A stretch of DNA of 64,000 bases, from contig DATJFP010000088.1 of the NCBI GenBank assembly GCA_035495615.1, forward strand, positions 41,763 to 105,762, in the 5' to 3' direction. The position numbers and the translations under genes were made by a program. The notes below the pieces were generated by a model. The model had not been told where the DNA came from and searched no databases. It was given only the letters and a program-made list of their open reading frames with translations. This stretch comes from Verrucomicrobiia bacterium (GTDB lineage Bacteria; Omnitrophota; Omnitrophia; Omnitrophales; Aquincolibacteriaceae). Positions 1 through 330 of the stretch are shown one piece after another (position 1 is the first letter of the stretch; each line of letters begins with the position of its first letter).

Positions 1-330
1 AGGCGCGCGCGGCCGCGGAGCGCGCGGTTGATGTCGGTCTGCAGCGCGATCTCCCCTTCCCCGAGGGCTCGCAGGAACTGATACGCGTAGGCCATGACGA
101 TGGGATTGTTCTCGTCGACGGCCGCGGGAATCACCAGCTGCCCGCTGCGCAGGAGCGTCGAGATGTGGCGGGCATAAGCGCGGTAGATCGGGCCCGAGTC
201 GAAAAACTGATAGCCGAATTCCCTGGCCAGAGCCCGGGCGGCTGTCGATTTACCGGCCTGCGCGGGACCCGCGATATTGATGCCTTCGGGCGTTTCCAGA
301 ATCTGGACCCACTGGTCGAGCGCGGCGTCG
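1..330 (-). other. Cytidylate-kinase-like P-loop nucleoside-monophosphate kinase domain (N-terminal part) at the window edge, continuing beyond position 1
   Basis: Careful codon-by-codon translation gives [57 protein letters not shown]...GEGEIALQTDINRALAGR. Compare the Cmk consensus ITIDGPxGAGKGT...LAxxLGxxxLDSGAxYRA...GEIRTQEV. Walker A is GPAQAGKS. Confidence 0.6.

Follow-up and report, generated by a model that had tools for sequence, protein, structure and literature searches.

The 64,000-nucleotide stretch of Omnitrophota DNA analyzed here (positions 41,763 to 105,762 of contig DATJFP010000088.1, assembly GCA_035495615.1; the window) carries on its minus strand a giant open reading frame (ORF) that leaves the window at position 1, with the C-terminus of the encoded protein lying outside. 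The segment encoded at positions 284–3 is most probably the first third of a genuine, divergent domain of the cytidylate kinase (Cmk) family that is integral to an Omnitrophota giant multi-pass membrane protein, and this offers the best explanation of the observations as a whole. The remainder of the domain would lie just past position 1. Judged from sequence, it is probably a diverged nucleotide-binding kinase module and not a kinase of cytidine monophosphate (CMP).

A preliminary description of this DNA had singled out a peptide as a close match to the N-terminal signature of Cmk. The peptide is present exactly as quoted (encoded at 281–168, minus strand), and the match is confirmed by profile searches. 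The Pfam family Cytidylate_kin (PF02224) recognizes the start of the domain in the window with an E-value of 3.8e-10; its score there is 40.3 bits, above the gathering cutoff of 26, and 34–36 bits when scanned inside larger pieces of the giant protein. The next-best P-loop family reaches 19.9 bits on the same domain. With the NCBIfam cmk model TIGR00017, the window fragment gives E 1.4e-10 and 41.3 bits (equivalog cutoff 135.55). In a Pfam scan of the 16,181-residue translation, PF02224 is the sole family above cutoff, and the P-loop GPAQAGKST is the only Walker A motif found by a regular-expression scan of the 16,181 codons. Of GxxGxGK[GS]T, this P-loop keeps the G, GK and ST but has Gln for the Gly in fourth position; it still conforms to Walker A in its general form, GxxxxGK[ST]. 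Before the sequence leaves the window, the copy also shows the canonical Lys18, Ser36, Tyr40 and Arg41 (numbering of Escherichia coli Cmk here and below). A chance match, or a generic P-loop NTPase that is not specifically Cmk, is exceedingly improbable: only 38 profile positions are aligned and AAA and kinase families weakly match the same P-loop, but PF02224 scores 40 bits against at most 20 for any other family, the Cmk-specific DSGxxYR motif is present, and the explanation is refuted by relatives that carry full-length Cmk domains, one of them with a modelled Cmk fold.

No stop codon interrupts the minus-strand frame between positions 48545 and 3, a length of 16,181 codons; the first ATG in frame (48530) is probably the start codon. 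Upstream of the Cmk-like domain, 16,087 codons share its frame, and it is not a stand-alone protein of ~220 residues. The in-frame fusion that the preliminary description had proposed is therefore upheld, with 48.5 kb free of stops, and the missed stop codon that it had considered does not exist, since the frame is open throughout; the absence of a Cmk profile match, its other ground for doubt, is contradicted by PF02224 and TIGR00017. Its statement that the upstream sequence is not Cmk also agrees with the Pfam scan, where no match above cutoff is found in the giant protein upstream of the domain. GC contents at the first, second and third codon positions are 0.68/0.43/0.79 for the whole giant ORF and 0.69/0.48/0.83 for the last 330 nucleotides; the coding signature is kept up to the window edge, with no break.

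The same fusion is found in other giant genes. When the last 500 residues were searched exhaustively with HMMER against 1.84 billion representatives, eight relevant clusters emerged (P0045, P0046, P0047, P0048, P0049, P0050, P0060 and P0061), all of which are fragments of giant genes and belong to Omnitrophota wherever the source names the organism. All eight align over ~250 residues upstream of the domain, and seven also over the P-loop region, P0061 stopping short of it. Lower-ranked matches were only short canonical Cmk fragments aligned at the P-loop alone. Where the preliminary description had offered a choice between a novel fusion and a degenerate module, the fusion stands, but it is not unique to this genome. 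Every relative of sufficient length carries a full-length Cytidylate_kin domain: PF02224 aligns over positions 1–205 of 211 in P0045 (E 1.3e-19) and 1–177 of 211 in P0047 (E 1.9e-22), and in P0085 (locus L007) the domain is complete, with positions 4–209 of 211 aligned (E 2.7e-18); in P0048, it is cut off after positions 1–120. Other searches were less productive. In word-index homology searches, the last 400 residues retrieved no relatives, and a profile built from the module retrieved canonical Cmk and Cmk-S1 fusions only; protein-pattern scans of genome and metagenome contigs (with the last 250 residues and with a three-sequence alignment) returned only L001, a canonical cmk in a Verrucomicrobiae metagenome-assembled genome (MAG).

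The closest match to the Cmk-like start in the window is P0046, whose 90%-identity cluster includes P0085, a protein of 5,887 residues encoded on an ENA scaffold. By BLASTP, P0085 is collinear with window residues 10843–16175 (~5,300 residues, transmembrane cluster included) at 23–47% identity, and a separate ORF upstream of it on the same contig aligns with window residues 10011–10690. These comparisons bear on whether the window instead ends in a separate cmk gene that seems to be fused through a missed stop, a frameshift or an assembly chimera. The assemblies of relatives do contain occasional in-frame stops and frameshifts, but there are none in the window, neither a stop in 16,181 codons nor a break in codon-position GC. 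Moreover, eight independent clusters, drawn from different assemblies, conserve the upstream 250 residues jointly with the Cmk-like start, and the collinearity with P0085 over 5,300 residues ends in the domain. A separate gene is effectively refuted by these data, and we give it almost no credence.

P0045 was modelled with AlphaFold2 from an eight-sequence alignment, and the predicted local distance difference test (pLDDT) scores are 75–89 over residues 205–587. In a Foldseek comparison of this model with the PDB, the top 21 matches are all bacterial Cmk structures (E 6e-8 to 2.6e-5, target TM-score 0.61–0.73), and other nucleoside monophosphate (NMP) kinases appear only at E > 2e-3. As modelled, this relative has the bacterial Cmk fold, including the β-sheet insert in the NMP-binding domain. 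The sequence of the P0047 domain matches 11 solved Cmks.

Active-site residues were compared in a MAFFT alignment of the embedded domains and canonical Cmks. In the Yersinia and E. coli enzymes (PMC3603445), Arg41 and Arg131 are phosphate ligands, the cytosine is held by Ser36, Arg110 and Asp132 with Tyr40 stacked on the base, and Asp185 and Arg188 contact cytidine diphosphate (CDP); substitution by alanine in R110A, R131A and R188A leaves the enzyme inactive. The embedded clade keeps Lys18, which is invariant in the alignment, as well as Tyr40, Arg41, Arg131, Arg181 and Asp185, and Arg110 is kept in three of five embedded relatives. Asp132 is replaced by glycine in all four relatives that cover this region, inside a GRG[YF] motif with a four-residue deletion, and Arg188 is replaced by Asn, Ala or Glu in three of three relatives according to MAFFT; in P0085, GRGY and a glutamate at position 188 were read by eye. 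No variation is seen among the canonical Cmks of this alignment at any compared position. In addition, the SRAxAPL stretch of canonical Cmk is replaced by a YPG motif in the relatives, and full-length embedded domains score 60.9, 50.4 and 77.7 bits with TIGR00017, all below the equivalog cutoff.

Because the relatives have replaced Asp132 (by glycine) and Arg188, a CMP-specific housekeeping kinase is unlikely. The strict form of that explanation, a fully functional (d)CMP kinase that was captured by the giant gene as a housekeeping enzyme, is improbable. The canonical Ser36, Tyr40 and Arg41 in the window copy, the near-canonical GPAQAGKST, the fact that the best matches are always Cmk, and the names that NCBI and JGI give to relatives (P0047 at NCBI) would all agree with it. 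However, the residues changed in the relatives (Asp132 to Gly in all four that cover the region, and Arg188) are the cytosine and CDP contacts, canonical Cmks are invariant at these sites, and TIGR00017 scores of 50–78 bits compare with a cutoff of 135.55. With Asp132 and Arg188 lost and the scores below the equivalog cutoff, the diverged or degenerate NMP-kinase module raised as an option in the preliminary description comes nearer to being right than a housekeeping Cmk with its function intact.

How far the divergence extends is a separate matter. A degenerate, non-catalytic module derived from Cmk, which would bind nucleotide only or serve as a structural or regulatory element, is possible but rather unlikely. 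The relatives are without Asp132 and Arg188, and R188A eliminates the activity of Yersinia Cmk (PMC3603445); all embedded domains score below the equivalog cutoff; a glycine of the P-loop is changed to Gln or Arg, with one lineage having GKNF; and the window copy has an odd insertion of 29 residues. Against this, the P-loop lysine is invariant, and Arg41, Arg131, Arg181, Asp185 and, in most cases, Arg110 are kept across relatives with DNA ranging from 37% to 66% GC. Such retention is the pattern expected for maintained phosphotransfer with a changed acceptor site.

Several observations weigh against the assignment of a genuine, membrane-tethered Cmk-family module. The window holds only ~93 residues of the Cmk-like domain; only profile positions 1–38 of the 211 in PF02224 are aligned, and the window ends 55 residues further on, such that Arg110, Asp132 and Arg188 of this copy all fall past its edge. 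The glycine in the fourth position of the NMP-kinase P-loop is Gln in the window and Arg in most relatives, and the P0050/P0087 lineage has GKNF in place of GK[ST]T, which suggests that the module can lose catalysis. The ~29-residue stretch behind YRAYA is atypical. Placement of the domain in the cytoplasm is derived from hydropathy, counted in a crude manner, and from the positive-inside rule, and the stops soon past the domain in P0045 (TAA) and P0047 (TAG) mean that the protein could end ~150–220 residues beyond the window.

The atypical stretch is defined by pairwise alignment, in which the window segment AYAYQFLRALGEGEIALQTDINRAL pairs with AYAAQILKAIEEGVISLSVTLDQAL of P0046 with a score of 58; the ~29 extra residues that follow YRAYA are probably the reason why the hidden Markov model alignment ends at profile position 38. 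MAFFT gives an alternative placement of the same stretch without an insertion. A recent tandem duplication was considered as its source and rejected, as the two window segments have no similarity at the DNA level.

The membrane topology of the giant protein was predicted with a Kyte-Doolittle scan (19-residue window, threshold >1.6), i.e., from hydropathy only. The scan gives ~25 hydrophobic segments. The hydrophobic anchor MIDWQTRRAKPWLRTVALLVALIFIVHDVVWA comes after ATG 48530, isolated helices or helix pairs are located near residues 3556–3617, 7120 and 8937–9010, and a cluster of predicted helices (Table 1) is homologous to the transmembrane cluster of P0085 at 39–47% identity. Parts of the soluble C-terminal region behind the cluster are collinear with the giant fragments P0061, P0047 and P0085 by BLASTP. 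Directly past the last predicted helix is a basic stretch, AKAIRWAARR, which by the positive-inside rule suggests that the C-terminal region is cytoplasmic.

Within the soluble region, the Cmk-like domain has a defined place. In the relatives, a conserved helical module always stands ahead of it, and the order of the super-module is the unit-start LKG...WG module, unannotated sequence, the helical module and the Cmk-like domain. The soluble super-module comprises ~1.5–2.6 thousand residues behind the cluster of ~17–20 helices, and the arrangement is shared with other giant fragments. From this order of sequence elements, the Cmk-like domain is taken to close a recurring unit. The unit-start module LKGGEFGGLE...RWGxTG occurs directly behind the Cmk-like domain in three relatives, i.e., P0060 (~1440–1500), P0085 (~5860–5887) and L003, the locus of P0047 (7293–7450), and P0085 has a further copy at ~4349–4400. 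The divergent copy in the window is 36% identical to P0085 residues 4331–4480 (E 3e-21, BLASTP). As a mere impression, the LKGG unit-start module looks NDK-like. The copy at 4062–4517 opens the last unit of the giant protein in the window.

Past position 1, the polypeptide probably runs on into a further unit by analogy with P0085, whose continuation favors that of the window's protein. Past its internal Cmk-like domain, P0085 reads LMLYGGVRGGLEYEF..., and at least 3,337 further open codons come behind a frameshift in the assembly. P0060 runs ~3,700 residues past the domain. L003 has a lone in-frame TAG (7290–7292) ~70 residues past the domain, after which the same frame is open for 10 kb, and the reopened frame begins with the motif LLKRGEFGGLE...RWGATG. 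In L004, the locus of P0045, a TAA is located 16 residues past the domain and 26 nucleotides from the contig end. The giant gene of L007 also has an in-frame TAA at 2381–2383, with the same frame reopening at once, in addition to its frameshift at ~20103–20113; the window ORF is unbroken at the position matching this TAA. The in-frame stops and the frameshift in L003 and L007 could be sequencing errors, pseudogenization or real gene boundaries.

Other parts of the units differ between relatives. P0085 residues ~2710–4331 form ~1,600 extra residues with two domains of FBPase_2/metallophosphatase type that are absent from the window's protein, and the same segment includes a stretch that is NUDIX-like by eye; window residues ~12776–13561 have no counterpart in P0085. 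The neighboring domains in collinear relatives include ARMT1-like, FBPase_2, Metallophos and CofD, and the following unit in relatives contains APH, PGM/PMM and GT2. In the window, the ARMT1-like match is below cutoff, and it is credible because PF01937 passes the cutoff in the collinear region of relatives (P0061, 38.4 bits; L007, 32.7 bits). These neighboring domains are consistent with an assembly for the handling of nucleotides or phospho-sugars.

With respect to function, the intact P-loop lysine of the Cmk-like module would bind ATP, and the kept Arg41, Arg131 and Arg181 would handle phosphate. The module would probably still transfer phosphate, or at least bind nucleotide, at the cytoplasmic face, and the acceptor is more likely to be a nucleotide or phospho-compound other than CMP. 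It may work together with the enzyme domains that neighbor it in relatives (phosphatase, nucleotidyl-transferase and sugar-phosphate). A bolder proposal, which we consider doubtful, is that of a neofunctionalized kinase clade, so far found only in Omnitrophota giants, that phosphorylates a non-CMP substrate and also marks the boundary, at the C-terminal end, of a repeatedly used unit of 1.5–2 thousand residues. Its signature could be GQAR/GPAxxGK[ST]T ... GRG[YF] ... YPG, with the helical module being obligatory. Under this proposal, the module might for example recycle a nucleotide freed by neighboring transferase and phosphatase domains, and the role at the unit boundary is suggested because the next LKGG...RWG unit, or a stop codon in some assemblies, directly follows the domain. 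If true, it would provide a handle on how giant genes are assembled from units.

The N-terminal end of the giant protein is its best-conserved part. For the N-terminal 800 residues (46131–48530, minus strand), 44 homologues were found, the most similar with 64% identity; all of them end at contig ends. The named homologues are all partial proteins from Candidatus Omnitrophota/Omnitrophica MAGs, except for one labelled "bacterium", and no Pfam domain was found in any of the 44. One JGI fragment of 480 residues is 100% identical to the N-terminal part of the giant protein.

Compared with bacterial type-1 Cmk (PF02224, TIGR00017; E. coli 1KDO and Yersinia 4E22), the embedded domain has the P-loop, DSGxxYR and, in relatives, the arginines of the LID in common. 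Type-1 Cmk is a stand-alone protein of ~220 residues, whereas the domain is here part of a protein with over 16,000 residues, always with the helical module ahead of it; the relatives also differ in their GRG[YF] with the four-residue deletion, the absence of Arg188, YPG in place of SRAxAPL, and TIGR00017 scores of 50–78 bits. Cmk has likewise been fused repeatedly in PanC-Cmk (NF010004), Cmk-Der (NF007071), AroA-Cmk (NF008816) and Cmk-ribosomal protein S1. Cmk fusion models and proteins are matched by the window sequence or profile, with no fusion model near its cutoff. The known fusions are two-domain housekeeping proteins of ~500–800 residues with a canonical Cmk, in contrast to the giant membrane partner and divergent domain found here.

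Giant ORFs with few annotated domains, many transmembrane helices and poor conservation have been described in Omnitrophota (Seymour et al. 2023, PMC10066038). West-Roberts et al. (2023, bioRxiv 10.1101/2023.11.21.568195) reported Omnitrophota "Archaeovorins" with scattered metabolic enzyme domains, and Nielsen and Lui (2026, bioRxiv 10.64898/2026.06.07.730766) defined a "multi-enzyme metabolic cluster" class, with a reading of membrane-anchored, cytoplasmic domains. The protein in the window resembles these giants in its size (over 10,000 residues), its many transmembrane helices, its largely unannotated sequence with scattered metabolic, kinase and phosphatase domains and its poor conservation, but it is exceptionally bare: a single Pfam domain exceeds its cutoff across 16,181 residues. 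Unlike the dockerin-type giants (West-Roberts et al. 2023), it has no dockerin, TSP3 or EF-hand-type repeats and no tandem or internal ones. Neither the text of 10.1101/2023.11.21.568195 nor that of 10.64898/2026.06.07.730766 mentions a cytidylate-kinase domain, and one supplement of the 2026 preprint has no mention of it either. Enzyme-studded Omnitrophota giants, the occurrence of Cmk in fusions and the database labels on relatives are already known, and only the divergent GRG[YF] clade and the position at a unit boundary are mildly new. Since housekeeping-type enzyme domains in Omnitrophota giants have already been published, the present protein adds a case and not a new principle.

The giant genes of Omnitrophota, almost wholly unannotated, rank with the largest known from bacteria. 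The Cmk-like piece offers the best foothold on function in this protein, since no other domain in its more than 16,000 residues clears a curated threshold. The loss of the cytosine-reading residues together with the conserved super-module argues for repurposed cytoplasmic nucleotide-handling enzymes, and not solely extracellular adhesins. There is also a hazard for annotation: the 2,379-residue giant fragment P0047 (MCX5666743.1) carries the name "(d)CMP kinase" in GenBank, and the 587-residue P0045 is called "cytidylate kinase" by JGI, although the domains of these two fragments reach only 61–78 bits with the cmk equivalog model (cutoff 135.55) and are without Asp132 and Arg188.

Table 1. Features located in the 64,000-nucleotide window, with the evidence used for each assignment
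Feature	Positions	Strand	Evidence and remarks
Giant ORF	3..48530	minus	At least 16,176 codons from ATG 48530; frame stop-free from 48545
Cmk-family domain, N-terminal third	3..284	minus	~93 residues, cut by window edge; PF02224, TIGR00017, alignment with relatives
~29 extra residues (RHISTLLRSGQLVIPAAVDENNPIVMAYA) right behind YRAYA	78..164	minus	Comparison with closest relatives P0046/P0085
DSGPIYR, Cmk NMP-site motif	180..200	minus	Equivalents of Ser36, Tyr40, Arg41; alignment to canonical Cmk
P-loop GPAQAGKST	243..269	minus	Regular-expression scan and sequence reading
Conserved helical module	285..1052	minus	~255 residues; always ahead of Cmk-like domain in relatives
Unit-start module LKGGEFGGLE...RWGxTG, divergent copy (LLLVLKGDLPWPVRKQVL...IWGNSGL)	4062..4517	minus	BLASTP
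ARMT1-like (DUF89 phosphatase), weak match	5430..5762	minus	PF01937, E 0.0023, 17.6 bits; cutoff of 25 missed
Soluble C-terminal region	3..10262	minus	At least 3,420 residues past last predicted helix; hydropathy and BLASTP collinearity
Cluster of ~17–20 predicted transmembrane helices	10263..14489	minus	Residues 11348–12756; hydropathy scan
N-terminal hydrophobic anchor or signal RRAKPWLRTVALLVALIFIVHDVVWA	48417..48500	minus	ORF reading and hydropathy
Sigma-70-like promoter TTGACA-17-TATACT	48705..48733	minus	11/12 consensus, consensus match only; ~175 nucleotides upstream of giant ORF start
Response-regulator-like ORFs (two)	48797–49228, 50878–51243	minus	Read by eye
Sensor histidine-kinase-like ORF	49240–50802	minus	Read by eye
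tRNA-Ala (anticodon CGC)	51327–51402	minus	Sole RNA gene found in window

In composition, the giant gene has a GC content of 0.62–0.67 and a third-position GC (GC3) of 0.73–0.85, and its flanking genes have 0.50–0.55 and 0.60–0.74, respectively; the GC content of the giant gene falls towards the 5′ end, to 0.565 at 46–48 kb. The 16,181-residue translation has not a single cysteine, and its content of Ala, Leu and Arg is 12.8%, 10.3% and 8.8%. No tandem DNA repeats were found in the giant gene and no internal repeats at E < 1e-6 in the protein, and the Pfam scan returned no matches to HEAT, TPR, dockerin, TSP3 or EF-hand-type repeats. The giant protein is non-repetitive "dark matter". Long plus-strand ORFs (165–5825, 5910–9569, 12279–16085 and others) that form a one-frame chain antisense to the giant gene were rejected as genes. 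Their first-position GC (GC1, ~0.8) exceeds GC3 (~0.65), the mirror image of the minus-strand gene, and they are therefore regarded as shadow ORFs of this GC3-rich gene.

The ORFs directly upstream of the giant gene resemble response regulators and a histidine kinase, and have the same orientation. A terminator-like hairpin (48780–48794, minus strand) is located behind the preceding response-regulator gene, and together with the near-consensus promoter (Table 1) suggests that the giant gene has a promoter of its own.

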